DNA of 64,000 bases, from IMG/VR virus record IMGVR_UViG_3300044796_000401; one strand, given 5' to 3'. Below, in pieces: positions 8,377 through 32,560 of the stretch. The stretch is from a virus (Duplodnaviria > Caudoviricetes). Positions within the stretch are counted from its first letter, which is position 1. Each line of letters opens with the position of its first letter. Below the pieces are notes generated by a model. It was not told the origin of the DNA, did not search any database, and saw only the letters and a list, made by a program, of their open reading frames with translations. Both the position numbers and the translations under genes were made by a program.

Positions 8377-8446
8377 ATTTATTGCCTCCAACTACAGCGT
8401 ACCACCGTCACTCCAGAAGTCAAGCGTGTAATTTCCCAAATAGCGG

Positions 8447-8475
8447 TAGCTAAAATCCCCCAACCGCTGTATACT
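8447..8475 (+). promoter_or_regulatory. Repeated promoter TAGCYA-N17-TATACT (representative copy)
   Basis: Similar motif at 8447, 14389, 19300, 26131, 31560, 34476, 53976, 56272, 58473, 60320 (+) and 13785, 2189 (-), mostly with an AAATCCCC-like spacer. Confidence 0.8.
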
Positions 8476-8631
8476 ATGAGAGTAAGCGGTAAGTTCCGCT
8501 GCACAGAAAAGAGGAAATGCACGAAAAGGCCCGCATTCGTTTTCGTTGACTCCTGCGGCGAGCAGGCGTACAATGATTGTAGCAGTCAGGATTCCCGACT
8601 GATATTTACCGTGGGACAGAAAGGGAGAAAC

Positions 8632-9423
8632 ATGAAACCGAAGACGGAACCTCAAGTAGCTTGGGTCACCATAATAGGGCAGACAGCCACGCAGCGAGCG
8701 GAGGAGAAGGCGGCGGCGGACGAACGAGTGAGAGAGCTTGAAAAAGCCGGGACGGGCTTAAAATGGTTACGCTGCTACAAAAAGCAGGTAGCCAAGCAGA
8801 GAGTAGCACGCCGCAAGAAGGCCGCCGACCCCGAGTGGCAGCAGGCGAACGCGGAAGCGATGCGCAAGATGCACGCCAGCCCCGAGTGGCAGCAGGCGAA
8901 CGCGGAAGCGATGCGCAAGATGCACGCCAGCCCCGAGTACCAGAAGGCGAGGGCGGAAATGTACGCCAGCCCCGAGTACCAGAAGAACGTCTCGGAAGCG
9001 AACCGCAAGAAGGCCGCCAGCCCCGAGTACCAGCAAAAAATGGCGGAAATGTTCGCCAGCGACGAGTGGCGGAAGAACGTCTCGGAAGCGAACCGCAAGA
9101 AGGCCGCCAGCCCCGAGTACCAGCAAAAAATGGCGGAAATGTTCGCCAGCGACGAGTGGCGGAAGGCGAACGCGGAAGCGCACCGCAAGCTGGCCGCCAG
9201 CCCCGAGTGGCAGGAAGCCATGAAGAAGGTGGCCGCCGACCCCGAGTGGCGGAAGGCGCACGCGGAAGCGAACCGCAAGATGCACGCCGACCCCGAGTAG
9301 CGGAAGGCGAACGCGGAAGCAACAGCAAAGAACAACCACAACCGCTGGCATGCAAAACGGAATTTGACGAGCGTGCGCTGCCCCCTGTGCTCCGAGCAGG
9401 GCTTCGTGGTCGCTTGGGGCTAG
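8632..9423 (+). pseudogene. Tandem-repeat protein (ASPEWQQANAEAMRKMH-type repeats) with an in-frame TAG at 9298-9300
   Basis: TAG occupies the position of the repeat Trp codon (TGG); the frame continues to ...NHNRWHAKRN...CPLC...* at 9423. Confidence 0.6.
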
Positions 9424-9431
9424 CCCGGCTT

Positions 9432-9454
9432 GTGGAGTCAAATGGATAGTTCCC
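9432..9454 (+). repeat. IS1595-type terminal inverted repeat (inversion breakpoint)
   Basis: GTGGAGTCAAATGGATAGTTCCC is 20/23 identical to 13825-13847; flanked by ATAAATAA (reverse complement TTATTTAT). Confidence 0.85.
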
Positions 9455-9728
9455 ATAAATAAAGCGGCAACCGATGTTTAGTTCCTGTCCGCCTCAATAC
9501 TGTGAGATTTCCAAACAGTTTTCCAGTTATGTCTACAAAGTTTGCACTTTTCCTCGGATGACATTTGCGGTTCCCGCAATGTCCAATTTGTAGAGCATCT
9601 TCACGAATTTTCTTTTCTGTGCCACACGCGCAAACAGCTTTCCAAAACCGATGATAGTTGCAGGATTCCGCTTGCTCAGTTACAGTAAGCTGCTCGAATT
9701 TTTGTCCGGTTAAGTCCTTAAACACCAT
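9455..9728 (-). pseudogene. N-terminal half of a split HNH homing endonuclease
   Basis: Two DLTG.KF..LTV repeats typical of phage HNH endonucleases; runs into the TIR at 9454; joins in frame to 13848-14337. Confidence 0.8.
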
Positions 9729-9733
9729 ATACT

Positions 9734-10705
9734 TTAATACTGTGAAAACAGGGGGTTTTTCAGCAGCTTGGTAACCTTGATGCCCTTGCCTTTGTACGGC
9801 AATTCCTTTTGCTTCTTGAGGTGCTGCCTCGCCCACTCGATCTCGCGGCGGTACAGCGGGCGGGCCTTTGGCTCCAAGGCCTCTACCGCCTTGAACATCT
9901 CACTAGAGTCGGCGGCGAGGACGGCCTTGGCCCATACCCCGAAGTCCGGGCCGCCAAGCTGGCGGACGACCTCGCTGGCGGTCAGGCGGTGGAACGTTGC
10001 GGCTTTCGTCCGGTCGGCGGTGAATGCGAACTTTTCGACTCGCGTGGCGTTTTCGGGATCGAATTCGACCGAGCTTATGTACATTTCGACGCCCGAGACG
10101 ACTTTGGGCGTTTCGACGGCGACGTGGTATCCCGCCATGATTCCCTTGGATTCTTCTTCCTCCAAGCCTGTCACCCATGAGGGCGCGGACTTCACGGGAG
10201 TTTCGTCCCAAATGTCCTGCGGTTTGAGGGGTGCGGTTTGGGTGACTTGCGATCTGGGCGCGGTCTTTTGAGCGGGCTGATGCGGGTCTTCGGCAATGGG
10301 CCTTGTAAGCAAGCTCAGGGGCTCTTGGCTATAGGCTCCAGACTGCGGTGTGGTCTGCTCCGGCATGATCGTGCGCTCGGCGGTCTTGCTGTTCACCTCG
10401 TTCGTTTCACTGGTATAGGAATCCGACTCGCCATAGTCCGGCCGCCCGCGAAGCCCGGTCACGGCACCCGAATCGTCCGTGGAGGAGCGGTGCGGAGCTT
10501 TCAGCAAATCATTGAGAAATGGATCGTCGCCGACCAACTCGCCGTGGCCGCTCCCGGCGTTGTTTACCGCGATCGCTGCGGGAGAAGCGGCCTTACTGTC
10601 AAAAAGACTGTTTTTCTGGAGTAAATCGCTCTTGGGAATCCCACTCCATGAGCCTTTGCTGCTGCGGTGGCTAGGACAATAAGAGACGCAGGCTCGTTTT
10701 GTCAT
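9734..10705 (-). CDS. Hypothetical protein (start uncertain)
   Basis: 323-aa open frame within the minus-strand block. Confidence 0.5.
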   Translation of the reverse strand: MTKRACVSYCPSHRSSKGSWSGIPKSDLLQKNSLFDSKAASPAAIAVNNAGSGHGELVGDDPFLNDLLKAPHRSSTDDSGAVTGLRGRPDYGESDSYTSETNEVNSKTAERTIMPEQTTPQSGAYSQEPLSLLTRPIAEDPHQPAQKTAPRSQVTQTAPLKPQDIWDETPVKSAPSWVTGLEEEESKGIMAGYHVAVETPKVVSGVEMYISSVEFDPENATRVEKFAFTADRTKAATFHRLTASEVVRQLGGPDFGVWAKAVLAADSSEMFKAVEALEPKARPLYRREIEWARQHLKKQKELPYKGKGIKVTKLLKNPLFSQY

Positions 10706-11025
10706 GCCCCGACCCCCTTGACCCAGTGCAAATGACGATAAACCGCCTCAACCCAAGCCGTAAACTCCTCAAGACTGTAGTTTTTCTTGGCCCAATTGCA
10801 TTTTTGGCAGCATGAGACACAGTTGCTAAATGTATAGCCCTCATCGTTGTTGCGGCGGTCTATGCCGTTGTAGATGTAGTCGCCATAATACCGACGCTTA
10901 CCGCCACCGCATGGGGAGTTCCTACTCATAGACGGCGGAGCATTGCAATAAAAACATTTCCCCTTGGCGAGAATGTCAAACTGTTCGTCTGTCAATTCGA
11001 TCTTAACACTCATTTTTGCCCTCAA
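10702..11025 (-). CDS. HNH-like endonuclease
   Basis: CFYC ... NGIDRRNNDEGYTFSNCVSCCQKCNWAK. Confidence 0.8.
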   Translation of the reverse strand: MRAKMSVKIELTDEQFDILAKGKCFYCNAPPSMSRNSPCGGGKRRYYGDYIYNGIDRRNNDEGYTFSNCVSCCQKCNWAKKNYSLEEFTAWVEAVYRHLHWVKGVGA

Positions 11026-11046
11026 ATAGGGGGCAAAAAGTCTAAT

Positions 11047-11532
11047 TTATTGCGGTTTCTTTTCTATGCCTCGAACCTTGAGCCATTCAATTTCCTGCGG
11101 ACTCAGGGGGCATGGAGGTGGGTCGCCGGGCTTCCACATGTGGATGTGGTCCGGCAGGTTGTTGAAGCTGGCGTCACGGAATCCAAGCCAGACCCATACA
11201 CTAACCATCAAGGCGTTCAAGAGATTCCATATGGCTTGCGGAAGGTGGGGCTCGCTGCGGTCGCCCTCAAGATATCGTTCGGCGTGCCGGATACCGCTAC
11301 CAACCAAGTCGGCAATTTTCATGCCGTTTTCCCAGTTGCGGTCGTCCCCGTTGCCCGTTTTACTGCGCCCCAGATTACCTATCTCATAGATGCGAGAGAC
11401 AAGAAAAACAGCCACGGTTGGCATCCACTGAGGAGCCCCCTTGCCTGTGGCCGCATCCCTCTGGGCTCCCCCAGCGTACTTGCGTTCTTCTGTGGATGTT
11501 TTCTTGAATCCTACGTCTTTGGGTTCATCCAT
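11047..11532 (-). CDS. dATP/dGTP diphosphohydrolase-domain protein (DUF5664-like)
   Basis: GAQRD...GK, RIYEIG, NWENGM, S..RH..RYL.G...E.HL..A.WN pattern. Confidence 0.7.
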   Translation of the reverse strand: MDEPKDVGFKKTSTEERKYAGGAQRDAATGKGAPQWMPTVAVFLVSRIYEIGNLGRSKTGNGDDRNWENGMKIADLVGSGIRHAERYLEGDRSEPHLPQAIWNLLNALMVSVWVWLGFRDASFNNLPDHIHMWKPGDPPPCPLSPQEIEWLKVRGIEKKPQ

Positions 11533-11544
11533 GCTTACTTAATA

Positions 11545-11808
11545 CTAGGTTTCAGGCCCGCCGGGAGGATATTTGGGATGCCGAGCGTATGGACCGCCTT
11601 CGGTTCCCGATCTGTGGTCATCATCGGGCTCTTTTTTCCAGCACAGCCGCGCGGCGACGCCGCAAAAAACGACCATGAAAATGAGAACCGCGTCGGCAAG
11701 CATCGCCACCCAATGCTGGGTGCGCGGGTTCGCCGGGATGAGAAGGCATCCCAAGCTGTAAAGCCCCACCATGGCGTACAGTATTGCGGCTGCTTTCGAT
11801 TGTGTCAT
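11545..11808 (-). CDS. Small membrane protein
   Basis: Two hydrophobic helices from MTQSKAAAIL. Confidence 0.5.
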   Translation of the reverse strand: MTQSKAAAILYAMVGLYSLGCLLIPANPRTQHWVAMLADAVLIFMVVFCGVAARLCWKKEPDDDHRSGTEGGPYARHPKYPPGGPET

Positions 11809-12017
11809 GGATGTTCTCGCAAGAATTCGTCCGTAGAACCTTCCAAGGCTCGGACATCCATCACATCCGGCCCGAATAGGGGTTCGTAGTCCATCGGCAC
11901 GGTCCAAGTGCGGGTCTCATCCCCGCGAGTCGCCGTTAAGGTCCACTCGAATGGAGCCTTGTCGGGCAGATCAGCAACGACATGCCAGCCGTTCTCCGTG
12001 AATTCCGCGTATTTCAT
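11805..12017 (-). CDS. Small hypothetical protein
   Basis: ATG after GGAGG; stop overlaps the next start. Confidence 0.55.
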   Translation of the reverse strand: MKYAEFTENGWHVVADLPDKAPFEWTLTATRGDETRTWTVPMDYEPLFGPDVMDVRALEGSTDEFLREHP

Positions 12018-12246
12018 TTGTCCTCCAACTTGTCCCGTTGTCTTATGTGCCGGTATCCCGTTATCCAGAAAAATACTAGGCCGAACTCCATGGCGAGCTT
12101 CTGGTCCCACGAGGGAGAAATGCCCCGGCGAGAGAGCAGCAAGAGAAGCAACAGCATGATCCCGGCGAAACAGAGCCACACAAACCGATTGGCGCTTCTC
12201 GCCATCTCTTCCGGCGTGTATCTATTCGCCCCCATCGTCACCAGCG

Positions 12247-12894
12247 TCAAGCGCTGGCAGCCGCCCTCTTCACGCGGTAGGGCAGCTTCGCCTTTTTCCC
12301 GCTCGCGTCCGGGTATCCGGCGTGCATCTTCGTGAGGAAGGTGCGGAGGGTGTGCGTGCAGTCCTTGCCTTCGTCCAGATAGCCGATGGCCTTGGCGATC
12401 TCCCTGGTGGTCATGGTGCCCTCGTTCCACAGCCGGGCGACCTCCAGGTAGGGGAACTTCCGCATGGGAGCCCTTGTCGGCTTGGATTCGGGCGCGGGAG
12501 CCGGGATTTCGGCCGCCTGCCGGACTTCCGGTGCCGCGGGGGCGTTGTTGTCCGCCCGCTCGAACTTCATGTCGAAGAGGGACTCGTACCGCGGCTGCTG
12601 CGCCAGTTCGCCGACGAAGCGGATCACGTCGCACGGCCTCACGCCGTGCTCGATAAGCTCGATCTTCGAGCGGGTGCTGGCTCCCTCCTCGACGGAGTGC
12701 TGCTGCATGACCTCTTCCTTGAAATAGGACTCGCGCAGGTTCCGCACGTCCCAGTTCTTGAACGTGCGCTTGTCTCCCTTCGGAAACGTGATCTCCGTCT
12801 CCTGCTCGAAGACGCGGTACTTCACGCTGGCGGTCTGCTCCGGGTAGTCGTCGATCCGGAACTTGACGGTGATGGAACGCAAGGTCGGTGTCAT
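12247..12894 (-). CDS. Hypothetical protein, possible C-terminal HTH
   Basis: 215-aa ORF; upstream TTGACG-16-TATACT promoter on the minus strand; LWNEG.MTTREIAKAIG segment. Confidence 0.6.
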   Translation of the reverse strand: MTPTLRSITVKFRIDDYPEQTASVKYRVFEQETEITFPKGDKRTFKNWDVRNLRESYFKEEVMQQHSVEEGASTRSKIELIEHGVRPCDVIRFVGELAQQPRYESLFDMKFERADNNAPAAPEVRQAAEIPAPAPESKPTRAPMRKFPYLEVARLWNEGTMTTREIAKAIGYLDEGKDCTHTLRTFLTKMHAGYPDASGKKAKLPYRVKRAAASA

Positions 12895-12991
12895 TTCTCC
12901 GCTGCCTTTCTGACAATCAAGTCGTTTTCCCTCCGAGTGGATTACCTGTCCCAGTATACTGCGTTTTCCAAATTCGTCAAGCCCTATTTTG

Positions 12992-13847
12992 GGGAATTAT
13001 CCCTTTGAGTCCACACCCAGCAGGATTAGGACTAGGACGAAAGCAAATGCTTAAGCTGCACCATCACCGTCGGAATATCCTCCATGCCACAAAGCGCAAG
13101 GCAGAAAATGCCAGTATCGTCCATGTAAACCCGCATCTGCTCCGCCAACCCGGCGGCATCGCCGTCATCCGCCTTGACCTCAATGGCGACTAGGGCCTTC
13201 CCTTTTCCGACAACAACATCCATAAACTTGCCGCTCGGTGTCTTGACATTGTGGCGGATTTTCGCTTCAGGAATCTCCGTCCGAATATGGTGGTGGAATT
13301 CCGCCTCCACATCCCGCTCAGTGATATGAGCAAAGTCAATAGCGTACTCCAATTCCCGCTCAACCTCACCCTCCTCAGAATCCTTTTCTGCCGGGTTATG
13401 GGACTGTTTAGCCGTCTCTCTCCCCTCCTCCTCGGACAAAGTGCAACCCATGTCCAGAGATTTCTGGGTCAGCCCCCACTGCCCATACTCCAGTGCAGGT
13501 CTTGTCGAACGATTATCAACATAGCCGGACTTCTTTAGCCGTGTGAGTGCCCAAGCTAGGTCATAATCCAACCCAAACTTGTGACTTTTGTTTGGGGAGG
13601 GCTTAGACAGTTCTTCCGTTGAAAATTTTTTGTGCGTTTGAAAGTAGTCAAAAATAGCGAAGCGAGTAGCGGTGCCTCCGAGTTCTCGAAGGGCACTAAG
13701 TGTTGGATTAAGCAACCGCGTCTCTATCGTATCAGTCATCATTTTCCTCTATCCGTAGTATACAGCCGAGGAGGGATTTTAGCTAGCTGTATTGTGTTGA
13801 AAACAAGCTAGTTATGAGATATTTGTGGACTCAAAGGGATAATTCCC
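12992..13847 (-). mobile_element. Non-autonomous IS1595-type cassette carrying an Mrr-like gene
   Basis: Perfect 23-bp inverted repeats GGGAATTATCCCTTTGAGTCCAC; no transposase; internal TAGCTA-17-TATACT promoter. Confidence 0.88.
13032..13742 (-). CDS. Mrr N-terminal domain plus PD-(D/E)XK-like nuclease
   Basis: LSALRELGG...LAWALTRLKKSGYVDN...GQWGLT resembles Mrr_N; C-terminal MDVVV...AIEVKA motif. Confidence 0.7.
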   Translation of the reverse strand: MMTDTIETRLLNPTLSALRELGGTATRFAIFDYFQTHKKFSTEELSKPSPNKSHKFGLDYDLAWALTRLKKSGYVDNRSTRPALEYGQWGLTQKSLDMGCTLSEEEGRETAKQSHNPAEKDSEEGEVERELEYAIDFAHITERDVEAEFHHHIRTEIPEAKIRHNVKTPSGKFMDVVVGKGKALVAIEVKADDGDAAGLAEQMRVYMDDTGIFCLALCGMEDIPTVMVQLKHLLSS

Positions 13848-14337
13848 TTATTTATGCCTATGCTCCTGCAACAATCAAACGGAGGTTACTAGTGGCAGTT
13901 TGCTAAATGGGAGAACGAAAAGTTGCGGATGCATTCAGCGTCAAAGCGCCTCAGAAACAGCGATAAAATCGCGTAAAAGACCGTATGAAGCGTTTTACAA
14001 CCAACTGATGCGCAACGCAAAGAAGAGAAATCTGGTAGTTGACATTTTATATGAAGCCTTTCTTGAGTACACAAAACAGCCTAACTGCCATTATTGTACC
14101 GACCCAGTAATGTGGGTTGAATACAGGGAACAAAACACGAGAGGCTCCAAAGTGGGGCGCTGTGGTTATCATTTAGACCGTAAAGATAGTAGCCTTGGTT
14201 ATTTGAAAGCGAATGTTGTTGTGGCATGTGCTCGCTGCAATTGGAGTAAATCAGATCGGTTTTCATACGAAGAGTGGTTTGTTATGACCGCTCCGTTAAG
14301 GTTCAAGGGGAATCCCACCCCATCGAACCAGCGCTGA
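13848..14337 (+). pseudogene. C-terminal half of the split HNH endonuclease
   Basis: YLCLCSC...LLNGRTKSCGC...CHYC...LDRKDSSLGYLKANVVVACARCN; starts at the TIR with TTATTTAT. Confidence 0.8.
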
Positions 14338-14423
14338 GGATTTCTTGGCGGTGGATCGTTACAGAAATCAGCAATTTGTTGCTGCGGCTAGCTAAAATTC
14401 CCTGGCTCGTGTATACTAGGAAT

Positions 14424-15032
14424 ATGGAGCCTCTCGAATTAGCGATCATTAAGGCCGTCCAAGCCCATGCCGGACAGCGTGACGCTGACGGCTCCCTCCA
14501 CATCGCCCACTGTATCTCAGTCATGGTGCTCAGCCAAAAGGAGGCCTACGAGAAGTGTCCTAGCGGTGTATCAGTTGAAGACCTCCAGTGTGCCGCCATA
14601 CTGCATGATACCATCGAAGATAGCGGCACAACCTTGGAAGAAATTTGCGCCGAGTTCGGCGATATAGTAGCGAACACGGTGGATGCTTTGTCCCACCGCA
14701 AGGGAGAATCCTACCGGGACTACATCTACCGCTGCAAATCCGATCCCGCCGCCCGGCTCATCAAGATTTGCGACCTGCTGCACAACATGAGCCGCACGCA
14801 CAAAGTCAGCGCCAAGAAAGCAAGCTGGCGGGAAAAGCTGGAATATAAATACCGCATTGCCTCGCTGGTGCTCAACGGCAAGTGGGAGCCCACGTGGGAG
14901 GGAGCGTCCTATGAGGTCCGCTACGAGGATGCCACCGCACGGTTCTACATCGCCGACCCCGACGGCAAAGAAATCGAGATCACCGAGAAGGAAGCGAAAA
15001 ATGTCAAGGCCAGCTTTAAGATCAGCAATTGA
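14424..15032 (+). CDS. HD-domain hydrolase (RelA/SpoT hydrolase, Mesh1-like)
   Basis: AH.GQRD...HI.H, AAILHDTIEDS, V.ALSH, IKICDLLHN motifs; leaderless start 6 nt after TATACT. Confidence 0.8.
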   Translation: MEPLELAIIKAVQAHAGQRDADGSLHIAHCISVMVLSQKEAYEKCPSGVSVEDLQCAAILHDTIEDSGTTLEEICAEFGDIVANTVDALSHRKGESYRDYIYRCKSDPAARLIKICDLLHNMSRTHKVSAKKASWREKLEYKYRIASLVLNGKWEPTWEGASYEVRYEDATARFYIADPDGKEIEITEKEAKNVKASFKISN

Positions 15033-15320
15033 CTGGTGCTACAGGAAGAGGATTATCACCATCCTTGTGCTGCTCCTCACTCTGCTGTTCGCGCTTTTCG
15101 CCACGGCTTCGGGGCTGGTTATCTGCCCGGAGCACGGCGTCAAGTCGGCCTTCACGGGCAACAGGCAGGTGGTCTTCAACGGCTCCAAGCGTCACGATTA
15201 TTGCGAGTACAGTCACGTTCTTCGTGATTTATCTGGCACTCACAAGTTTTGGTCCGACTGCGAATAAATTCGTTTGACTCTCCGCCCCTCGTCCCTTAAA
15301 CTTGTAGGGGATGGGAACAA

Positions 15321-15650
15321 ATGATCGCCGAGTTCCTCAAGCTCGTGTTCCTGAGCATCGCCTGCGGGGCGATCAGCATGACGATCTCGAAGTCCGTGGC
15401 GTTCGCGCCCCTGCGCAGGCGGGTCAAGGCCCGGAGCGCCTTCCTCGGCGGGGGGCTGGCATGCCCCTACTGCACGAGCCATTGGGTGGCGCTCGCCTTG
15501 ATGCTTATTTACTTTCCACGACCGCTGCATTGTGGTATTACTGTCATTGACTTCCTTGTCGGGACCATGATGGTCGTCGCTCTGGCGTCGGCGACAGCAT
15601 GGATGATCTATTCCGCCTACGCGGCTATGGCAGCCCCGGAGGAGCAATGA
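15321..15650 (+). CDS. DUF1360-like membrane protein
   Basis: GLACPYCTSHWVA motif between TM helices. Confidence 0.6.
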   Translation: MIAEFLKLVFLSIACGAISMTISKSVAFAPLRRRVKARSAFLGGGLACPYCTSHWVALALMLIYFPRPLHCGITVIDFLVGTMMVVALASATAWMIYSAYAAMAAPEEQ

Positions 15651-15820
15651 CCGCCAAAGACAAGAAACTGCTCGCCGTATTCCTGTTTACCCTCGTTGCA
15701 GGCGCAACTGCCGCTGTGCAGATCGCCCACCATAACTGGGGCGGGCTGTTCATGACGGCGGCCGCCGCCGTATGGTGCATTCTGTATGCGCAGCATGTGG
15801 ACGACTGGGAGGTCAAATGA
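15647..15820 (+). CDS. Small two-TM protein
   Basis: MTAKDKKLL...; ATGA overlaps at both ends. Confidence 0.5.
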   Translation: MTAKDKKLLAVFLFTLVAGATAAVQIAHHNWGGLFMTAAAAVWCILYAQHVDDWEVK

Positions 15821-17001
15821 ACGTTCAGCAGCAGATAGTCGATCTCAACGCCCGGCTCAGGGAAGCGAGCGAGGCGTACTACAAGAAGAACCAGCCCATC
15901 ACGCCGGATGCGGACTTCGACGCGCTGGAGCGCCAGCTAAGGGATTTGGTCGAGCGGCACCCGGAATTCGCCGAGTACGCGCCCATGCTTTCCTCGGTCG
16001 GCAGCGATCTCAGTGGTGGCCGTATTCCACATGCCCGACCGATGTTGTCCATCGAAAACAAATACGACAAGAATGAGATCGTTGAATTCTTTCGGTCTTT
16101 GCCGAGCCCCAGAGCGATTTTAGAAGAGCCAAAACGCGACGGCATCAGTGCTTGCCTCAGTTTCAAAAACGGCAAATTGGCAAGGGCTCTTTCCCGCGGG
16201 GACGGACAGGCCGGGGAAGACATGACGGCACAGTTTAACGCGCTGAAGAACGTTCCCAAGGAACTATTCGGCTACGGTGTCTCCTTTGTTCCCCCCAAGC
16301 CGCCCATCAATCTTTGTGTATGCGGCGAGCTTGTCATGCGGAAAACGGAACTGGATCGCATCAACGGGGCTGCCCGTGCCGGGAGCGGGAAAGAATACAC
16401 CAGTACGAGGAATCTGGTGGCGGGGACAATGAAACAGAAAAACTTACCCGTGGTCGCTTCCCGCGACATTCGGTTCATTCCGTGGGACGTATATTCGCCC
16501 GACCAAGATGACAAGCTTCCAGACAGCGCCTACGACCGCATGAAGCTGCTTGAAAAAATGGGACTCCCAGGCTTTGACGGCACGCTAGTTACGAAAGAGG
16601 ATCGAATCATTGAAGTGCTGAATGAAATCCTCCTGTTTAATGAAAAATCGGACATTGCGGCGGATGGCGTAGTTGCCAAAGTGGACAGTCACGAACTTCG
16701 CCGAGAATTGGGGATCGGCAGCAAATTTACAAACTGGATGTGCTGTTTCAAGCCTCAGAATTTGGCGGCAATTACCCGTCTTCGGAACGTTATTTGGCAA
16801 ACTGGAAGGGGCGGAAAAGTCACACCGGTGGGGATTGTCGATCCAGTGACGCTCGGCGGGGCCGTGGTGACGAGAGTTACTTTGAACAACCTTAGCTGGA
16901 TTCGCAGCATGAATTTGAAGATCAACAGCCGCATAAAACTTGTAAGAAGCGGGGATGTAATTCCCATGGTTGCGGAGAACTTGGACGGCAAAGAGATTTG
17001 A
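15817..17001 (+). CDS. ligA: NAD-dependent DNA ligase, N-terminal part (adenylation and OB-fold domains)
   Basis: YY...P...DADFDAL, H.RPMLSI, EPKRDG (KxDG), SRGDG..GED, DGVVAK, WQTGRGGKVTPV, RSGDVIP; stops just after the OB fold. Confidence 0.93.
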   Translation: MNVQQQIVDLNARLREASEAYYKKNQPITPDADFDALERQLRDLVERHPEFAEYAPMLSSVGSDLSGGRIPHARPMLSIENKYDKNEIVEFFRSLPSPRAILEEPKRDGISACLSFKNGKLARALSRGDGQAGEDMTAQFNALKNVPKELFGYGVSFVPPKPPINLCVCGELVMRKTELDRINGAARAGSGKEYTSTRNLVAGTMKQKNLPVVASRDIRFIPWDVYSPDQDDKLPDSAYDRMKLLEKMGLPGFDGTLVTKEDRIIEVLNEILLFNEKSDIAADGVVAKVDSHELRRELGIGSKFTNWMCCFKPQNLAAITRLRNVIWQTGRGGKVTPVGIVDPVTLGGAVVTRVTLNNLSWIRSMNLKINSRIKLVRSGDVIPMVAENLDGKEI

Positions 17002-17019
17002 TGTACAATAGACGAATGT

Positions 17020-17102
17020 GGTGGGATTTGGTAAGGTCAGGTACGGCTGGGTTAGGTTTGGTAAGGTATGGGGCGCATGTGCGGAGCATTCCGTACATGC
17101 GC
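17020..17102 (+). ncRNA. GGY-NN pentamer repeat array with a 3' hairpin (VIPR-like guide RNA candidate)
   Basis: Eight consecutive perfect units GGTAA GGTCA GGTAC GGCTG GGTTA GGTTT GGTAA GGTAT (17030-17069) with degenerate flanking units; hairpin GCGCATGT-GCGGA-GCAT-TCCGT-ACATGCGC (17073-17102); TACAAT -10 box at 17004. Confidence 0.75.
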
Positions 17103-17122
17103 CAGTATAAAGAGAGGAGTAC

Positions 17123-17782
17123 ATGGGAGTATCAGCTAAAGCGGCTAAAGAACGGCCTTTGACAGATGTAACGACGCCTACGAACGGAGCGGAAGGCACT
17201 ATTGGCATTGAGGAACCGTATACCGCAGAGACGACCATCCAAGGAACAGCCGATCTGCTTTTCCACGGTTGGAATGTGGAAGCGATTGAAGAAAAATCTA
17301 AGGCTTCTAAGGGTTCGGAAGCGAAGAAGACCGACAACATTGAAACTTATGTTCTTCGTGACAATGACGGATTCATTTGTCTTCCTTCGGAATATCTTCG
17401 GATGTCCATTGTCAACGCTGCCCGGCGCAAGCAGGACCCGAGTTCCCCCCGCAAATCAGCATATGATCCGTTCAAGGCAAGCGTCATAGCCTTGGAACCA
17501 CTAGTTCCCACTATAAACGCCAAGGGCGAAAAAACGAAAGAGTGGGATTTTGCCCACAAATGCCGGGTTCAAGTGCAACGCAGCGGGATTGCTCGTTGCC
17601 GCCCAGCGTTTCACAAAGGATGGAGGGCGACAGTTCAATTAATGGTCATGACGCCCGAATACATCTCGCAGGATTTGCTTCACGATGTTGCCGAAAAGGC
17701 GGGACGGTTAAACGGTGTGGGCGACTACCGTCCCACACATGGACGATTCCGCATCGTCCGTTGGGAGATCGCTAATGCCTGA
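17123..17782 (+). CDS. Stand-alone Cas7-like/RAMP-fold protein (Vipr-like)
   Basis: N-terminal TIQGTADLLFHGW strand, GFICLPSEYLRMSIVNAA, and C-terminal Gly-rich loop AGRLNGVGDYRPTHGRF; AGAGGAG Shine-Dalgarno. Confidence 0.75.
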   Translation: MGVSAKAAKERPLTDVTTPTNGAEGTIGIEEPYTAETTIQGTADLLFHGWNVEAIEEKSKASKGSEAKKTDNIETYVLRDNDGFICLPSEYLRMSIVNAARRKQDPSSPRKSAYDPFKASVIALEPLVPTINAKGEKTKEWDFAHKCRVQVQRSGIARCRPAFHKGWRATVQLMVMTPEYISQDLLHDVAEKAGRLNGVGDYRPTHGRFRIVRWEIANA

Positions 17783-18665
17783 TTTGGTGGAAATCGTTCC
17801 CCCATTCGATTGTCCGGAATGCCGCACCCCTCTCGAAGAGTCGGACGAAGGGGGTGCTGGCATTCTTATTCACTGTTGTCCCAACGCGAGGTGTCCTGGC
17901 CGGATTCGGGGCACCTTGACTTTCATCGGCAGCCGTGAAATTTTGGAAATTGATAACCTGGGACCGGAATCCGCAACCTCACTGATCAAGTTTGGTGTTC
18001 ACGATCTCGGAGAACTGTATACTTTCCAGTCAGAGGCCCTAACCAGCGCTGCGGTTTCCGGTGAAGAGGCCTTCGTCGAACACATGCGGAAGGCTGGGTT
18101 CGACATTACGATCCTCAAGCTGGTCAAGTCCTTGGAGCGGGCTAAAACCGCTTCTTGGGGGCGCTGGATCGCAGCAATGGGCATTCCCATGATCGGTCGC
18201 ACCCTCGGTAAGCCGATTGCCACCGCGCTTGACCTCGGACCCGAAGATATGGCAAACTTGCCGGGCAAGCTGCTCCTTTTGCCGAAGCTGGGCGTTGAAG
18301 GACTGGGAGAAGCGAAGCTCGGTTCCATTTGCGAATGGGCCAACGATCCCAGCAACCAAAAAATGTGCTATACTCTATACGAAAGGGGAATCAGACCTAT
18401 GTCAGTGGAAAAACCGAAAGCCTCCGCCCCATTGAGCGGAGTTATATTTTGTATTACGGGAGCCTTCGTGGAAGGTCGTGATTCGATAACGAAAAAGCTG
18501 GAGAGCCTTGGTGCTGTAGCGAAATCCAGCGTTAGCAAGAAAATCAACCTTCTAATCGTGGGGGACGACGCGGGCAGCAAGCTCGACAAAGCCAAATCCC
18601 TCGGCATTCGAACCGTAGGCGGAGACTGGCTGGCCAAGACGCTAGCGGAGAACGGACTCGCGTGA
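17775..18665 (+). CDS. ligA: NAD-dependent DNA ligase, C-terminal part (Zn finger, HhH, BRCT)
   Basis: CPEC...CPNARCP, EIDNLGP, GIPMIGRT, GLGE, and BRCT FCITG...SVSKKINLLIVGDDAGSKLDKA..LGI. Confidence 0.92.
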   Translation: MPDLVEIVPPFDCPECRTPLEESDEGGAGILIHCCPNARCPGRIRGTLTFIGSREILEIDNLGPESATSLIKFGVHDLGELYTFQSEALTSAAVSGEEAFVEHMRKAGFDITILKLVKSLERAKTASWGRWIAAMGIPMIGRTLGKPIATALDLGPEDMANLPGKLLLLPKLGVEGLGEAKLGSICEWANDPSNQKMCYTLYERGIRPMSVEKPKASAPLSGVIFCITGAFVEGRDSITKKLESLGAVAKSSVSKKINLLIVGDDAGSKLDKAKSLGIRTVGGDWLAKTLAENGLA

Positions 18666-18865
18666 CAATCGAAACCAAACCCGTGATGCGCGCTCTTGTG
18701 TGGAACGAAGGCGAGGAGCCGGAGAAGCTCCTTTACTCGTGCGGAGAGTGCGCCTTTGCTACGTCCGATCCGCGGCGGGCATCGGATCACGAGTCATGCC
18801 ATGGCAAGTTTTACTTCGGGCAACGCTCCCACCACCGCGAATGCCCTTGGAGGAAATTACGATGA
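18662..18865 (+). CDS. Small Cys/His protein
   Basis: CGEC...H...H motif; GTGA overlap. Confidence 0.45.
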   Translation: MTIETKPVMRALVWNEGEEPEKLLYSCGECAFATSDPRRASDHESCHGKFYFGQRSHHRECPWRKLR

Positions 18866-19191
18866 CACAGCACGGACAGAGCTTGCTTGACCGCGTCATG
18901 AAATGGGCGCAATTTCTCAGCGTCATGGGCGCGCTTATCGCCGGATCGACGCACTACCTTTCGACATTCGCGAAGTACCGCGACATGGCGAATGCTAACG
19001 CGTACAAGATCGAGCGTATGGAGCGATACCTCGCATTCAAAAACCCCGAGTACTGGCAGGTGGTTGGAGGCCTCATCCAGCCGGGCGAACCCGACGTTTA
19101 TCAGGTGAAGTCCCGCAAGGCGCTGTCGCAGCAGGAGCTTGAAAAGCTCAAGCAGGACGTAGCGCCCAGCGCGCCGCAAACCAAGAAGTGA
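18862..19191 (+). CDS. Hypothetical membrane-anchored protein
   Basis: ATG after GGAGGA; one TM helix. Confidence 0.55.
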   Translation: MTQHGQSLLDRVMKWAQFLSVMGALIAGSTHYLSTFAKYRDMANANAYKIERMERYLAFKNPEYWQVVGGLIQPGEPDVYQVKSRKALSQQELEKLKQDVAPSAPQTKK

Positions 19192-19438
19192 GGTGCCCAT
19201 GATTCCCTTTATCGCCGCCGCAGTCGGGCTTTCGGTCATCGCATGGTTTTGCTGGATCGCGACAAAACCGAGGAAGCAACGGTTCTAGGGGGCGATTCCT
19301 AGCCAAAATCCCCCCGGCGCTGTATACCATGCGTGTGCCTGATCGGCGAAATCGCTGGCAGGACAAGCTTTGCCGGTGCCGTACGCTGCATCGGGAACTT
19401 CGACCCGAGCCCGCTGAGATGCGGGCGAGGAGATTGAG

Positions 19439-19990
19439 ATGGCGATGAAACCCAACCCGCATCCCGAGTGGCTCAAGGAAATGATCCACGGCTACTCTGA
19501 CTACCAGACGTGGCGTCTGCTGATCGAGGGCGCGAACTTCGCCGTCGTGCAAACGCCCGGCGGAAGGTGGGGCGACAACAGCGGGACGCACTACGGGAAG
19601 ATGAGCTACTACCTCGTGGACAAGCGCAGCGATCCCCGCCACGGGCACGGCATGGAGTACTGGAAGGAACTGAAGCACGGCGGACGCATCGGGGCAAAGA
19701 CCAAGCGGGAGTGGAAGGCCCTCGTGGACAAGTCCGACAAGCTGGACACATTCGTCACAGGCAAGGAAGACGAGGAACTGGTGCTTGAGACCGTCGTGGA
19801 CCGGATTGCGGTCTACTTGGAGACGCAGCGGAATGAAAGCGAGAAGATGCGGACAGGGAAGCGGGACCCCCACGGTTACAGCACCGACTATTGGGCGGGG
19901 CACGTCAACGCCTTCAATTGCACATTGAAAAAGCTGAAAGAGCTTGTGCCGAATCCACTCAAGGAGGAGACCGAGGAGGAAAAGCAATGA
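19439..19990 (+). CDS. Hypothetical protein
   Basis: 183-aa ORF with GAGGAG Shine-Dalgarno, downstream of a TAGCCA promoter. Confidence 0.65.
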   Translation: MAMKPNPHPEWLKEMIHGYSDYQTWRLLIEGANFAVVQTPGGRWGDNSGTHYGKMSYYLVDKRSDPRHGHGMEYWKELKHGGRIGAKTKREWKALVDKSDKLDTFVTGKEDEELVLETVVDRIAVYLETQRNESEKMRTGKRDPHGYSTDYWAGHVNAFNCTLKKLKELVPNPLKEETEEEKQ

Positions 19991-20706
19991 AGAGTTTTGC
20001 TCAAGTGCTGGTTACCGCGTTTGTGCTGGTGTTTGCGGCTTCAGGTCTGAACGCAACCATTAAACCGCCCAAGGGCCACTATAAGAAAGCCTATGATGCC
20101 TCGATGGTGCTTTACGGAAGCAGCGTTAGCGACAAAAGAGAAAACCACCCGATGTGTTCCGCCACCGTATTTCGGAAAGTCCAAGGCGGCTATCTCTTGC
20201 TTTCCGCCGGGCACTGCGCCATCACCGGGGGACTCAATGAGTTTCCCGCTGATTTAACCTACAGCGCCTCAAGCGACATCGGAACACCGATTTATCCCAT
20301 CAAGCTCCTCAAGGCGGTCTGTAATGAAGAGACCAACGTAGACTTTTCCGTCTTCTTCTTTCCGACGACCCTCAAGTTCCCCGTCATCGAATTGGGAGAC
20401 GAAGGCTCGGAACAAATCGGAAACAAGACCTACAACTTCAACTTCAGCAAGGAAATAACGAAACTGCTCTCCAGAGGAGTTATCGTTTCCCTTCCGGTCA
20501 CTACAGGCCCGACCAAGAACTTGGTTTTCGTGGACCAGTTTGCGGCGCTCGGTTCCAGTGGTTCGTCGGTCATCAGTGAGAAGACGAACAGAATCATTGG
20601 CATCGTAACCTATGGCTGGCAGATATTGGAGAAAATGCCCGAGGGGTTTATTCCGATCTCAGCCGTAAAGCTGGAACTCTCGAAGACCAATGATCTTCCT
20701 AAGTAG
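19987..20706 (+). CDS. Secreted trypsin-like serine protease
   Basis: Signal peptide; LSAGHC, VDFSV and GSSGSSV catalytic-triad motifs. Confidence 0.8.
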   Translation: MKSFAQVLVTAFVLVFAASGLNATIKPPKGHYKKAYDASMVLYGSSVSDKRENHPMCSATVFRKVQGGYLLLSAGHCAITGGLNEFPADLTYSASSDIGTPIYPIKLLKAVCNEETNVDFSVFFFPTTLKFPVIELGDEGSEQIGNKTYNFNFSKEITKLLSRGVIVSLPVTTGPTKNLVFVDQFAALGSSGSSVISEKTNRIIGIVTYGWQILEKMPEGFIPISAVKLELSKTNDLPK

Positions 20707-20760
20707 GCCTGTTGACGAACCGCTGTATTGGTGCCATACTTGAGTGGTGCGGAGGAAACA

Positions 20761-20985
20761 ATGGTGGACTTCCTAGACCAGGATCGCCTGGAAAGGCTCA
20801 TCCGGCAAGAGGCCCGTGCAGTCGTTGAAGAAAGCTTCGTGATTGAGAACAAGTTTGAGGCGAAGATTGAGGCGAGGGTCCCCGTGTCCTCCACCGCTGG
20901 TCCCGATGTCCACGCAGATGTGGGACGTTTTGTAGAGGATGAAATTTCACCGAGTGCAACAGGGGCAACCACCAGCGGCGACTAA
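20761..20985 (+). CDS. Hypothetical protein
   Basis: ATG after GGAGGA. Confidence 0.5.
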   Translation: MVDFLDQDRLERLIRQEARAVVEESFVIENKFEAKIEARVPVSSTAGPDVHADVGRFVEDEISPSATGATTSGD

Positions 20986-21198
20986 GAGGACCAATGACGA
21001 ACGATGAGAAGATCATCTACGTGGTGGTTGCAGAGACCGTCCAGCACCCGCTGACGACTACGATCATCGGCAACCATCTCGTCCGTCTCGATACGACCCG
21101 CACCATCGTGCAAATTCCGGGCCGCCTCGCGGCTCAGGCGCATACTGTTCGTATTTATGTTTGGTCAAAAAAGCTGTTACGGCTTAGGAAGGTGAAAG

Positions 21199-21660
21199 AT
21201 GGGACGAAATCGAACGCCACAAGCGATACTCGATGCACGCGGAAGTTTCATCGCAAACCCGCGCTTGAAAAGAGATGACGGAACGGAGCACTCAAAGCCG
21301 CTCGGTTCTGCGCCAAAACACATGACGGAAACAGACGCCGCAATGTGGCGCGAACTGAAGAAGGATTTGCTACCCGGCGTTGCGAAGAAAAGTGACCGAC
21401 ACGCTTTTGAAACACTGGTGCTCCTGAAGGTGCGCGAAAGGTCAGGAATATTTCTGGCCGCCGACCGTGGGCAGATGATAACCCTGCTTTCTCATTTCGG
21501 AATGACACCAGCATCGCGCACAAAAGTTGCGATGCCTGCCGCACCGAAGTCTTCGTTGTCTGACTTCCTTAAGAAGAGCAGACCCGCGCCCGCACCTGCA
21601 CCTTCGCCAGAGCCGGACGAAGTTGACCTGATGCCTGCTGACCCGACGCGCCTGAATTAA
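21199..21660 (+). CDS. Terminase small subunit, P27 family
   Basis: MGRNRTP...L..RG...NP, AP......W.EL, FGMTPASR.KV pattern. Confidence 0.75.
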   Translation: MGRNRTPQAILDARGSFIANPRLKRDDGTEHSKPLGSAPKHMTETDAAMWRELKKDLLPGVAKKSDRHAFETLVLLKVRERSGIFLAADRGQMITLLSHFGMTPASRTKVAMPAAPKSSLSDFLKKSRPAPAPAPSPEPDEVDLMPADPTRLN

Positions 21661-21699
21661 GGTGTTGCCAACATACACCACATGGCATATAATAGAGCC

Positions 21700-22164
21700 A
21701 TGCCAAAGAAACGCACCAACATCTACCTTGACCCAGCGCAGGCGAAGGCTCTCGAAGCGCTCAGTGCGGGGAGCAGCCATTACCGTTATGATGAAAGATC
21801 ACAAAGGGCGCACGAACGGGGACCTGAGCCGTTGGAGAAATTGATGCACAGCCTGTACGGTCATGACATCTGGCGGGACACCGAATACTGTAACTGGTTG
21901 CACCGCGTGGACGCCGGGAAAAATGAGAAGGTTGATGCTGTCCTTGTAGGTCCCGAGGACTGGTACTGGCTGGAAGACCCGCTTTACGGCGACGACCTGC
22001 TTCGCCTGCGGGAAGCGGGCTTGGAGAGCCGCTATATCCAAGTCCACCCCCGCGAGACGTGGGCTTTTGCCGATGCCTGCAAGAAGCTGTTCGCCCTGAC
22101 TGGCGTTGATGCTGAAAGACTTAGCGCCATTGGTGCCAAGATGGAGTGGTTCGAGCACTCGTAG
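21700..22164 (+). CDS. Hypothetical protein with a ribbon-helix-helix-like N-terminus
   Basis: MPKKRTNIYLDPAQ..AL..LS; TTGCCA-17-TATAAT promoter ending 6 nt before the ATG. Confidence 0.55.
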   Translation: MPKKRTNIYLDPAQAKALEALSAGSSHYRYDERSQRAHERGPEPLEKLMHSLYGHDIWRDTEYCNWLHRVDAGKNEKVDAVLVGPEDWYWLEDPLYGDDLLRLREAGLESRYIQVHPRETWAFADACKKLFALTGVDAERLSAIGAKMEWFEHS

Positions 22165-22202
22165 ACCATTAGTCAGCTTTCGCCCTCTTTAAGTGAGGGC
22201 AA

Positions 22203-23762
22203 ATGGCTAACACCCCTAACGATCCCAATTTCATCCCCAACCTCACCCCTCAAGCGGGTGGGCCGTTCAAACAGGTGCTTGTCGAGGCGATCTTCGAGAC
22301 GACTGGACTTGTTGGCTCGCCACCAACTGCCCCGCAGGATGCGTACAAGATCGTTCGTCTCAATCAGTATGGTCAACTCGATCCATCCCTCGGCGCTGGT
22401 GGGGGCGGGGGAGGTGGAAGCGTCTTTAGCGTCAACGGTCAGATTGGGATAGTAGTGCTGACGGCTACGGATGTCGGTGCTGATCCAGTCGGCTCCGCTG
22501 CTTCGGCTCAGACTAACGCCGAAGCTTATGCTTCTAATGCCTCAAATCTCTCTTCCGGCACAATCGCTTCAGCACGTCTTTCGGGCACCTACGGCATCAA
22601 CGTTAGCGGCAATGCTGCGACTGTAACCAACGGTGTTTACACCTCGGGATCGTATGCTGATCCGTCGTGGATCACCTCGTTGGCTGGCTCTAAGATCAGC
22701 GGCAACATCAGTGGCGATGCGACATCGATCACAGGTAACATAACTTATTCGCAAGTGACGGGAGTTCCCGCTTTCCCACAGAACACTTCCGTTGTGCCGC
22801 ATGAGTTCTTTACAGCCTACAACTCAACGACTGGTGCGTTTACCCAAGCTCAGCCATCATTCAGCGATCTCTCAGGCTCAATTGCAACTGGGCAAATTCC
22901 CGCCAGCACGGTCACGGTTTCTCAAATTAACGCCGCAGGAACCCCTTCCTCAACCACATATCTGCGGGGTGATGGTTCATGGGTAACGATTGCTGGTGGA
23001 AGTTCGGCCTTCAGTGCAATCACATCAGGTACAAACACCACGGCTGCTATGGTGGTTGGATCGGGTGCATCCATCATGGTCAGTGGTACGGGTGCGGTCG
23101 AAGCAACGCAGCTTAACGCGGTGGTGGTTAGCGGCACCGCACCGACGACGGGGCAGGCGCTCATAGCAACCAGCCCGACCACGGCAAATTGGCAGACCAT
23201 CAGCAGTGGGTTCACTGACCCCATGACAAACACTGGGGACTTGATTTACGGAGTGGTAAGCGGCTCCCCCGCGACCCTCGTCCCAACTCGATTGGGGATC
23301 GGAACGAATGGATACGTGCTTACGGTCGTAGGTGGGCTCCCAGCATGGGCACCTGCATCGGGGGGAGGTAGTAGTAGCCGCACAACCGTAACGATCACGA
23401 CCCTCAGCTTGGCTGCGGGAGAGATGCAGACGGGGTTGGTGACTGTGGCTAAAACGTTCGCCTTGCAGGTCTTGACAGTGGACGTTCCCGCTAGACTTCG
23501 ACTGTACAGCAGCACGGCTTTCAGGGACGCGGACCTCACACGCCCTCCGTCTCAGTTCCTCCACTACTGGACAAACCACGGATGCATCTGTGATATCCTC
23601 CTCAATGCCGCGACGGGGTTGACGTGGACGCTGAATCCGACAGCCCTCGGCACGGACAATGACACGTCCGTGACCAGCAGCATCCCCTACACTGTGACCA
23701 ACGCTGGGACGCAGGCTGCAACTATAACTCTGACTTTAACTTACCTTACTATGGAGACCTAA
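22203..23762 (+). CDS. Putative virion tail/fibre-associated protein
   Basis: 519 aa, G/S/T-rich; SVNGQIGIVVLTA.DVGA, TTYLRGDGSW and GDLIYG...RLGIGTNG.VL motifs common in tail-fibre proteins. Confidence 0.65.
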   Translation: MANTPNDPNFIPNLTPQAGGPFKQVLVEAIFETTGLVGSPPTAPQDAYKIVRLNQYGQLDPSLGAGGGGGGGSVFSVNGQIGIVVLTATDVGADPVGSAASAQTNAEAYASNASNLSSGTIASARLSGTYGINVSGNAATVTNGVYTSGSYADPSWITSLAGSKISGNISGDATSITGNITYSQVTGVPAFPQNTSVVPHEFFTAYNSTTGAFTQAQPSFSDLSGSIATGQIPASTVTVSQINAAGTPSSTTYLRGDGSWVTIAGGSSAFSAITSGTNTTAAMVVGSGASIMVSGTGAVEATQLNAVVVSGTAPTTGQALIATSPTTANWQTISSGFTDPMTNTGDLIYGVVSGSPATLVPTRLGIGTNGYVLTVVGGLPAWAPASGGGSSSRTTVTITTLSLAAGEMQTGLVTVAKTFALQVLTVDVPARLRLYSSTAFRDADLTRPPSQFLHYWTNHGCICDILLNAATGLTWTLNPTALGTDNDTSVTSSIPYTVTNAGTQAATITLTLTYLTMET

Positions 23763-23763
23763 A

Positions 23764-24684
23764 ATGGCAACATCAACCACAAACGCCTACTGCGACGGCT
23801 CGAACCTCACGAACTTCAATGCGTGGGCAAACTGGATGTACTTGAACTTCATTGCCTTCGGCTGGGTGCAGACCGCCGACACGGGGCAGGGCACGTTCCC
23901 AGCGAGCGGCTCCGTGCCGACAACGGCGGGGACGTACTATGCGATCTTTAAGTCCAACGACGCCACGACGGGTGCGTGTCCAATTTACGTGAAGATTGAA
24001 TTTTGGGCGCAATCCAATGTTCCCTATTTCGGGATCACGGTCGGGACGGGCGGCACCGATGGTGCGGGCAACCTGTTCCAGCCAGCCTCACAGCACATCT
24101 ACGGCGGCGGCACCTACTCATTAAAGGCTAGTGCGGCTTCCACCACCAACTTGCTGCCTTGCTACGCCTCCGGTGATGCTGGGAGTATTCGATTTGCGAT
24201 GTGGTGCTCAACAATCAGTCAAAGCCCGGACTATAGCAATGCTGTCGGATTTGTTGTTGCCCGCTCAAGGGATAGCAATGGGCTTGTCACTGGTAGCTAT
24301 GTCCAATTGTGGACATGGTGCAGCAACAGCTACAACTTTCAGACTATCTTCGCCTCATCTTTGGGAACAACGAACAGCATCGACGCTTCTGGCTGTTTCA
24401 TCGCTCCGTACCCGTTTGGCATGACGAATTCGTGGTTGAATAACGGCGCAATCATGGTATCCCCCGTGATGCAAAATATCGGCGGGCTGAGCAACCCAAC
24501 CCCAGACCTGCTGATTTCTGGAGCTTTGGACTTTCTTCCGGGTACAACCGCAACCGTAACGGTCTACGGCGTTACCCATACTTACTTGTCGGGGACATCG
24601 TGGTATGGCACTGGCAGTCCCTCTCAAGGAGTCGTCGCCTTTCTGTCGAGCACATACTCTACGCCGTTAATTAGGTACGAATAA
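23764..24684 (+). CDS. Putative virion structural protein
   Basis: 306-aa G/S/T/aromatic-rich ORF co-transcribed with the previous gene. Confidence 0.55.
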   Translation: MATSTTNAYCDGSNLTNFNAWANWMYLNFIAFGWVQTADTGQGTFPASGSVPTTAGTYYAIFKSNDATTGACPIYVKIEFWAQSNVPYFGITVGTGGTDGAGNLFQPASQHIYGGGTYSLKASAASTTNLLPCYASGDAGSIRFAMWCSTISQSPDYSNAVGFVVARSRDSNGLVTGSYVQLWTWCSNSYNFQTIFASSLGTTNSIDASGCFIAPYPFGMTNSWLNNGAIMVSPVMQNIGGLSNPTPDLLISGALDFLPGTTATVTVYGVTHTYLSGTSWYGTGSPSQGVVAFLSSTYSTPLIRYE

Positions 24685-24685
24685 A

Positions 24686-25417
24686 ATGGCAACCCCTGTA
24701 GGCGGTACAACATTTGCGCTCGCCGCTCCGAACACGTTTAACGTCTATTCACCAACGGCGGGAAACACCCTTATATTTTTTCTGTTGTTTGATGCTCCTG
24801 TTTCAGGGGTCACGGTGACCAACTATGCTGGAACCGCCTACTCAGACCCAGTAGCAGGACCCGTGATCGGCAACCTTTATAGCTTCATCGCACCAGTGAA
24901 GCAAGCATATCCGTATTGGCCTATAAACTGGACTGGAAGCGCCAACTGCGGCGTGGCGGTCGAAGAATACAGCGGCATCACTGGAGTCAGCCTCACAAAC
25001 CACACCACAGCATCGGGCAATAGCGGCACTGCTACGGCTTCACTGATTACCGATGACGCGAGTGGGGATACCATTGTAGCGGGTATGGGCAACGTCTCAA
25101 ACAACCCCCTCACCGCTACTGTGGGGACTCAACGCCAACAGAATTCTGGTAACGTCTGTCGCCTTGCTCTTATCGACAACACCAATGGGTCCGCATCCAG
25201 CCTTGCTTGTACTGCGACGATGACTTCTTCTCCTTGGGACGTTATTCTGCTTGAACTTCGCTTCGCTATCGGGGCCGTTCCCTTCATCGCCGTCGTTCAG
25301 TCAGATCGACCGAACGCAGGTGGAATTGCGGTGGGAGGAGAGGCAACCGATCAAGCTCTAGGAAATTACTCCCATACCGTTTGCTTCCCATACGGACAAA
25401 CTTTTCCGAGAGGTTAA
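24686..25417 (+). CDS. Putative virion structural protein
   Basis: 243-aa beta-rich ORF in the same operon. Confidence 0.55.
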   Translation: MATPVGGTTFALAAPNTFNVYSPTAGNTLIFFLLFDAPVSGVTVTNYAGTAYSDPVAGPVIGNLYSFIAPVKQAYPYWPINWTGSANCGVAVEEYSGITGVSLTNHTTASGNSGTATASLITDDASGDTIVAGMGNVSNNPLTATVGTQRQQNSGNVCRLALIDNTNGSASSLACTATMTSSPWDVILLELRFAIGAVPFIAVVQSDRPNAGGIAVGGEATDQALGNYSHTVCFPYGQTFPRG

Positions 25418-25443
25418 ACACGGCGGGCGTGGTATTATAGGGT

Positions 25444-26112: not shown

Positions 26113-26173
26113 TTATAAAGGCGTAATTCCTAACCAAAACCCAGCCTTTCTTGGTAGAATGGAGGTGTAAGAG

Positions 26174-27078: not shown

Positions 27079-27192
27079 TTTGCAGTGTTAGTGGGAATTT
27101 GAAGAAGTCGGCACCTGTTTGAGCAGAAAGTCACTTCTTGTTTCTTAGAAAGGTGGTACTCAGTGAGCTTCGGATTCGGAACAGGAGTAGGC

Positions 27193-32556: not shown

Positions 32557-32560
32557 GTTT

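Follow-up and report, generated by a model that had tools for sequence, protein, structure and literature searches.

VIPR (Viral Interference Programmable Repeat) is a phage system described in a pair of preprints, from which its filament assembly, the rule that one target base is skipped and its silencing outcome are known (bioRxiv 10.64898/2026.04.26.720920 and.720927). Five founding stand-alone RAMP proteins were named in this work (X1U2U4, A0A661D0E2, A0A0F9A1L0, A0A1F4YLN4 and A0A2D6XG06), X1U2U4 having also served as PSI-BLAST seed. A VIPR array was defined as a tandem of YNNGG units (GGY/NN, with YNNGG as the register in use) lying beside vipr on the same strand, with at least four and typically 9-16 units, and an accessory gene, vap, was found to be typical of these systems without being universal. 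In the cryo-EM structure of the SUSP1 complex, G1 of the repeat is assigned to H17 and D177, G2 to R138 and W178, and Y3 to E71/M72 and R179, with K82 assigned to the non-target strand (bioRxiv 10.64898/2026.04.26.720920 and.720927).

The window considered here is a 64,000-nt stretch of the genome of a tailed phage, in which a preliminary description, made from the letters alone, had noticed a run of pentamers followed by a hairpin and a RAMP-like gene and had likened the ensemble to the phage VIPR systems. The likeness is supported by the RAMP fold of the protein, by the founding entries found as its structural neighbours, by its profile homology to SUSP1 Vipr and by the array on the same strand. 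With a probability of about 0.9, the locus is a minimal VIPR system of a large phage sampled from peat and ponds. It is a genuine but ordinary member of the described family, which is large, and it almost certainly falls within the set collected in the preprint.

The repeat tract and its putative RNA

Eight perfect GG(T/C)NN units occupy positions 17030-17069 of the plus strand, and their variable dinucleotides (AA CA AC TG TA TT AA AT) are exactly those first read. In the YNNGG register the tract gains a ninth perfect unit (17027-17071, the extra dinucleotide being TT) and can be followed upstream to a total of up to eleven units (17017-17071; NN = GT GG TT AA CA AC TG TA TT AA AT) through TGTGG (17017-21) and TGGGA (17022-26), the latter degenerate, with GA in place of GG. 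In the GGYNN register a tolerant scan counted ten units from 17020, of which nine are perfect. The guide probably comprises 9-11 units rather than 8. The pattern is unique to the array within the 64 kb: a 4.4-unit GGYNN motif gave five overlapping matches against 0.02 expected from dinucleotide-preserving shuffles. The array lies 52 nt upstream of the vipr start codon, on the same strand. Between strain variants there are one or two SNPs in 3.6 kb, none of which falls in the guide; changes in NN were specifically sought, and the dinucleotides proved invariant in all strain variants sampled.

Directly 3' of the tract, 17072-17085 pairs with 17090-17103 to form a 14-bp hairpin with a GCAU loop, the putative 3' tail of the guide RNA (vrRNA; 17072-17103, plus strand). 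The strong hairpin reported at this place is real; the 107-nt stretch has a folding energy of -36 kcal/mol (z -4.5 against shuffles), the hairpin itself reaching -27.9 kcal/mol in 45 nt. It is not followed by a U-tract, and a terminator scan reported no terminator-like site there. In the related vipr loci a strong hairpin comes after 33% of arrays, compared with a frequency of 20% in random windows (p 0.13), and because this enrichment is not significant the tail is best regarded as a local feature with a presumptive role.

A promoter-like site (TGGACG, 16-nt spacer, TACAAT; 16982-17009, plus strand) overlaps the stop codon of the ligase half encoded upstream and would start an RNA near 17016. 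It is a match to the consensus only, two such sites having been found where 1.3 are expected. The predicted RNA could just as well be the vipr mRNA leader; the start codon of vipr at 17123 is preceded by a Shine-Dalgarno-like sequence (GAGAGGAG, 17112-17119, plus strand). Contigs from one peat metatranscriptome cover the vrRNA region and the beginning of vipr, as well as the whole surrounding 20 kb; given that this cover is even, carry-over of DNA is possible, and the contigs attest to the presence of the locus rather than to transcription of a small RNA. No Rfam family matches the putative vrRNA, and a search of nine related loci for hammerhead ribozymes was negative.

The Vipr protein

The vipr gene corresponds to the 219-aa open reading frame already recognized in the preliminary description (17123-17782, plus strand), and its assignment as a RAMP protein is based on the reading frame, the predicted fold and homology. 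An alternative TTG start at 17159 would give a product of 207 aa. Two ENA contigs have T instead of G at 17126, which converts codon 2 into a stop, so that the ATG runs straight into TGA as a start-stop pair, and gene callers place the start of vipr at TTG 17159 instead. Vipr probably starts at this codon in the strains concerned, which argues that the first 12 residues are dispensable.

Profiles of Pfam, NCBIfam and PADLOC gave no match to the protein, and PHROGs returned only phrog_4652, of unknown function. Its relatives are numerous: one search found 116 clusters at 45-65% identity, an exhaustive one retrieved 946 representatives at E values up to 0.001, and 371 IMG/VR contigs encode such proteins. 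An AlphaFold2 model built on an alignment of 45 homologues (pLDDT 87) shows the RRM core, thumb and glycine-rich loop of a RAMP fold, the loop corresponding to residues 194-209. The model and its structure matches bear out the RAMP-type protein with a Gly-rich C-terminal loop that had been proposed. Structure prediction and structure search, the check suggested at the time, gave Csm3 and type VII Cas7 as the best matches among solved structures. In the AlphaFold DB the best cluster was X1U2U4 (E 1e-15, TM 0.87 by hit, rmsd 3.0 over 191 residues, 24% identity), with A0A661D0E2, A0A0F9A1L0 and A0A1F4YLN4 also among the top clusters and A0A2D6XG06 at rank 8. All five founding Vipr entries lie within the top 8, and the neighbours placed ahead of all Cas entries are stand-alone Vipr proteins.

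A link to a characterized member comes from sequence and profile comparisons. The family profile matched PDB chain 36pp_D, annotated as 'SUSP1 Vipr protein', with an E value of 4.5e-13; hhalign against phiSUSP1 Vipr gave 97.9% probability over 157 columns; and tblastn reached phiSUSP1 and its relatives (E 2e-4). In the alignment, SUSP1 residues H17, E71/M72, R138, D177, W178, R179 and K82 fall opposite H48, E90/Y91, R160, D201, Y202, R203 and R101, respectively. The putative GGY-reading residues would accordingly be H48, E90, R160, D201, Y202 and R203, and the 45 homologues show little or no variation at these positions, except for position 202 (Y or F) and E90. As judged from the alignment, the pockets for G1, G2 and Y3 are conserved in this Vipr protein.

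Association of gene and array among relatives

The family signature was sought in 80 viral loci, 71 of them distinct, an array being counted when it had at least five perfect GGYNN units and considered near when within 1.2 kb of vipr. A near, same-strand array of this size was present in 56 of the 71 distinct loci. Counted individually, 175 arrays were near and on the same strand, one was near and on the opposite strand, and seven lay farther off. The GGY positions are kept between related loci while the NN strings vary, and close pairs of loci differ by single NN changes, such as TT versus GT in one guide (loci L019/L020 versus L025). Same-strand GGYNN arrays with constant GGY and varying NN are the signature described in the VIPR preprint (bioRxiv 10.64898/2026.04.26.720920 and.720927). 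No gene is conserved beside vipr across 81 loci, and no vap gene is found at the locus studied here.

Four IMG/VR relatives (L014, L018, L071 and L072) have uninterrupted GGYNN tracts with up to 44 perfect units, or about 98 when degenerate ones are included. These very long tracts may be the 'staggered' arrays of the preprint (bioRxiv 10.64898/2026.04.26.720920 and.720927).

Genomic setting

A split NAD-dependent DNA ligase encloses the VIPR cassette, one half on each side; the ligase is genomic context outside the VIPR system proper. The N-terminal half (Ia, adenylation and OB domains) occupies 15772-17001 and the C-terminal half (Zn finger, HhH and BRCT) 17775-18665, both on the plus strand, with the break at the OB / Zn-finger boundary and the ATG of the second half overlapping the vipr stop codon (ATGCCTGA). 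The closest relative of this ligase, at 45% identity, is that of the Tunturiibacter phage Tunturi_5 (309 kb), which is broken at the same residue (halves at L081:4070-5140 and from 8348 onwards). The gap of Tunturi_5 is 3.2 kb long and contains seven unrelated genes, including a thymidylate kinase, and vipr is found nowhere in its 309 kb. The cassette was considered as the cause of the split and rejected, because a phage devoid of vipr has the same break point; the split must be older than the cassette. No ligase was found near vipr in 80 related vipr loci. The ligase gap looks like an old, variable cargo slot.

The setting is that of a jumbo phage with 18 tRNAs and 55% GC, scaffolds of 208-270 kb carrying vipr, and the locus was found in peat and pond metagenomes from 12 studies in addition to the peat metatranscriptome already mentioned. 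The tRNA genes form two clusters (32364-33568 and 42896-46784) and include four for Ser and one with the anticodon TAT and a long variable arm. A 22.7-kb contig of a related strain, when compared with positions 8001-28000 of the window, displays rearrangements, namely joints between opposite strands at 9590/13945 and 13847/28000 together with two blocks, 10582-11498 and 20840-27627, that have been replaced, which suggests mobile cassettes around HNH and IS-like genes near 9.5-14 kb.

A second VIPR-like locus and a CRISPR-Cas operon

The same scaffold carries a second VIPR-like locus (L269:19232-20660), which begins 8848 nt past the end of the window. It encodes a stand-alone RAMP protein of 191 aa that is 26% identical to the first Vipr (E 4e-13; hhalign 93.5%), and its gene is followed by seven same-strand guide tracts of 9-14 pentamers each; a conserved block containing a pair of hairpins lies between the tracts. 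The repeats of this locus have the consensus GAY-NN, with G at the first position in 83 of 85 units and A at the second in 75 of 85, in contrast to the GGY-NN repeats and single guide of the locus under study. The positions of the second RAMP that align with R160, D201 and Y202 are occupied by F, S and M, substitutions that would fit a changed G2 pocket.

The phage also possesses a type I-C-like CRISPR-Cas operon, 43 kb from vipr, at 60748-63624 of the window (cas3-cas5) and L269:7144-12904. It codes for Cas3 (739 aa), Cas5d (204 aa), a 628-aa protein of the size of Cas8c and Cas7 (Pfam Cas_Cas7), and no cas1 or cas2 was found in the 22 kb inspected. The first impression that vipr had no adjacent cas genes is true locally, but a separate cas3-cas5 operon is present in the same window.

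The search for targets

The target proposed initially was a gapped sequence of about 23 nt derived from eight units. Its gapped form, with every third base skipped, agrees with the published rule (bioRxiv 10.64898/2026.04.26.720920 and.720927), while its length needs revision, the guide probably having 9-11 units. The predicted site would read (GTnGGn)TTnAAnCAnACnTGnTAnTTnAAnAT on either strand, the GTnGGn part being possible only.

No self-target had been seen by eye, and a search allowing up to three mismatches confirmed that there is none in the 64-kb window or in 22 kb of adjoining genome; the related phage Tunturi_5 likewise gave no match with up to three mismatches. The scans of larger collections (IMG/VR, JGI metagenomes and GTDB) were exact, with zero mismatches allowed, and would therefore miss a target with an 80-95% NN match. 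In IMG/VR the 8-unit core had 50 exact matches, all in contigs of 27-52% GC and none extending upstream, and the eight units at the 5' end had 16 matches. Nine units matched exactly in 85 stretches listed in JGI metagenomes and 45 in GTDB genomes; two of the 130 matches scored lie in contigs of 54% GC. The overall numbers are close to those expected by chance, almost all matches falling in AT-rich contigs against 55% GC in the phage; no match covers the full eleven units, and a location in the wobble phase of a long reading frame is rare. All exact matches look like chance, and the proposed check by searching for the gapped motif yielded no natural target in these collections.

Two candidates were looked at individually and set aside. 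One match in a 54% GC contig (L187) is in wobble phase and antisense within the gene of a 761-aa TPR protein, and nothing further supports it as a target. A recurrent sequence among the 16 IMG/VR matches of the eight 5' units, with an 86-91% NN match, does not lie in a wobble-phase reading frame and is at chance level.

Proposed mechanism and alternative explanations

In the mechanism that can be proposed from the published model, an RNA of about 90 nt (approximately 17016-17103) would be transcribed from a dedicated promoter or would form the vipr mRNA leader. Each pentamer would be bound by one Vipr protomer, with G1, G2 and Y3 held in protein pockets and NN displayed, giving rise to a helical filament of 9-11 protomers capped by the 3' hairpin. 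The displayed dinucleotides would pair with double-stranded DNA, every third base of the target being skipped, and the resulting R-loop triplex would block transcription. The bound gene would belong to a competing phage, satellite or prophage. Since no nuclease domain is present in Vipr or its neighbours and no neighbour of vipr is conserved, silencing rather than cleavage would be expected. The most likely effect of Vipr binding would be to block transcription of a gene in a competing element, while the two ends of the RNA, the count of units in use and the nature of the target are put forward here as predictions.

Several features of the locus could also suit a VIPR-derived module that no longer acts against competitors, regulating instead a gene of its own phage or host, or autoregulating vipr and the C-terminal ligase half via the 5' leader. 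The single guide does not vary among the strains sampled, the vipr mRNA carries the array in its leader, translation of vipr is coupled to that of the ligase C-half and no external target was found. However, 64 kb plus 22 kb (about a third of a genome of at least 208 kb) contain no match to the guide at up to three mismatches, the preprint saw no self-targeting in any clade (bioRxiv 10.64898/2026.04.26.720920 and.720927) and relatives do not share the ligase context, so that such a regulatory role appears improbable. A broader version, which is still unlikely if slightly less so, starts from the two loci taken together: the phage would operate two orthogonal VIPR codes (GGY with a single fixed guide, and a GAY paralogue with seven guides) beside its type I-C CRISPR-Cas, the invariant guide in the split-ligase operon having a housekeeping or regulatory role, such as timing the expression of a phage or host gene, and not one in inter-phage conflict. 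In that arrangement the ligase C-half, which binds DNA, might even be enlisted in place of an accessory protein.

The remaining explanations dispense with a VIPR system altogether. GG runs at 3-nt spacing could in principle make two-tetrad quadruplexes, and a strong hairpin stands between the tract and vipr; the tract could on these grounds be regarded as a DNA-level element (iterons or a G-quadruplex-prone tract) or as a transcription attenuator, with the RAMP protein as a mere neighbour. The strand-specific and family-wide association of gene and array (175 versus 1) and the retention by the protein of the GGY-reading residues known from the SUSP1 structure speak against these readings, as does the missing U-tract, and very little weight can be given to them. 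The gene would even less plausibly be a stray Cas7/Csm3, left over from a type III or type VII CRISPR-Cas locus. Csm3 and type VII Cas7 are indeed its best matches among solved structures, but no Pfam, NCBIfam or PADLOC Cas model recognizes it, no CRISPR repeats or cas neighbours occur at the locus, stand-alone Vipr proteins outrank all Cas entries in the AlphaFold DB, and the real CRISPR-Cas of this phage is the type I-C operon 43 kb away.

A VIPR system directed at competing elements remains the preferred reading, and the locus can be viewed as a clean and minimal example from a large environmental phage, with one protein, one guide and no accessory gene. Its particulars (a single invariant guide, the lack of vap, the hairpin tail, the old ligase gap, and the co-resident GAY-type locus and type I-C CRISPR-Cas) are of some interest; they do not amount to a new mechanism and leave the picture of how VIPR works unchanged. 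A one-guide locus is the simplest form in which the published gapped code could be tested outside the enterobacterial and Pseudomonas systems. In addition, the GGY and GAY Vipr paralogues constitute a natural pair within one genome, whose comparison could show how the pocket sets the repeat code.

Comparison with known systems

The nearest characterized relative is the VIPR system of Escherichia phage phiSUSP1, a type II VIPR in a scheme of types I-VII, in which the published arrays flank the vipr gene. Both loci encode a stand-alone Vipr RAMP of about 200 aa with conserved GGY-reading residues, preceded on the same strand by a GGY/NN pentamer guide whose tract ends in ...GGTAT-GGG and continues into a structured element, at the present locus a putative tail. 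Both are phage-encoded and located in the replication gene block, directly after a DNA ligase gene. The phiSUSP1 locus (L134:112-1212) lies directly downstream of its ligase, which is intact and ATP-dependent (Pfam DNA_ligase_A_M), in contrast to the split NAD-dependent enzyme found here, and for this reason the common position probably reflects just the replication gene block. The two Vipr proteins are about 30% identical, and only in profile alignment, the family studied here having a conserved insertion (QDPRSPRKSA, residues 104-113) that is absent from SUSP1. There is one guide at this locus and four in SUSP1, vap1 is present only in the latter, and the plain 14-bp hairpin of the tail is unrelated to the pseudoknot found in SUSP1.

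The likeness to Csm3 (type III-A) and Cas7 (type VII) is more distant, at 8-14% identity and with no Cas profile match. The systems to which these proteins belong have a CRISPR array, partner cas genes and a spacer guide, whereas the locus described here lacks array and cas partners and has a guide made of 5-nt repeats. In structure, the best match of the Vipr model is found in the Vipr clade around UniProt X1U2U4.
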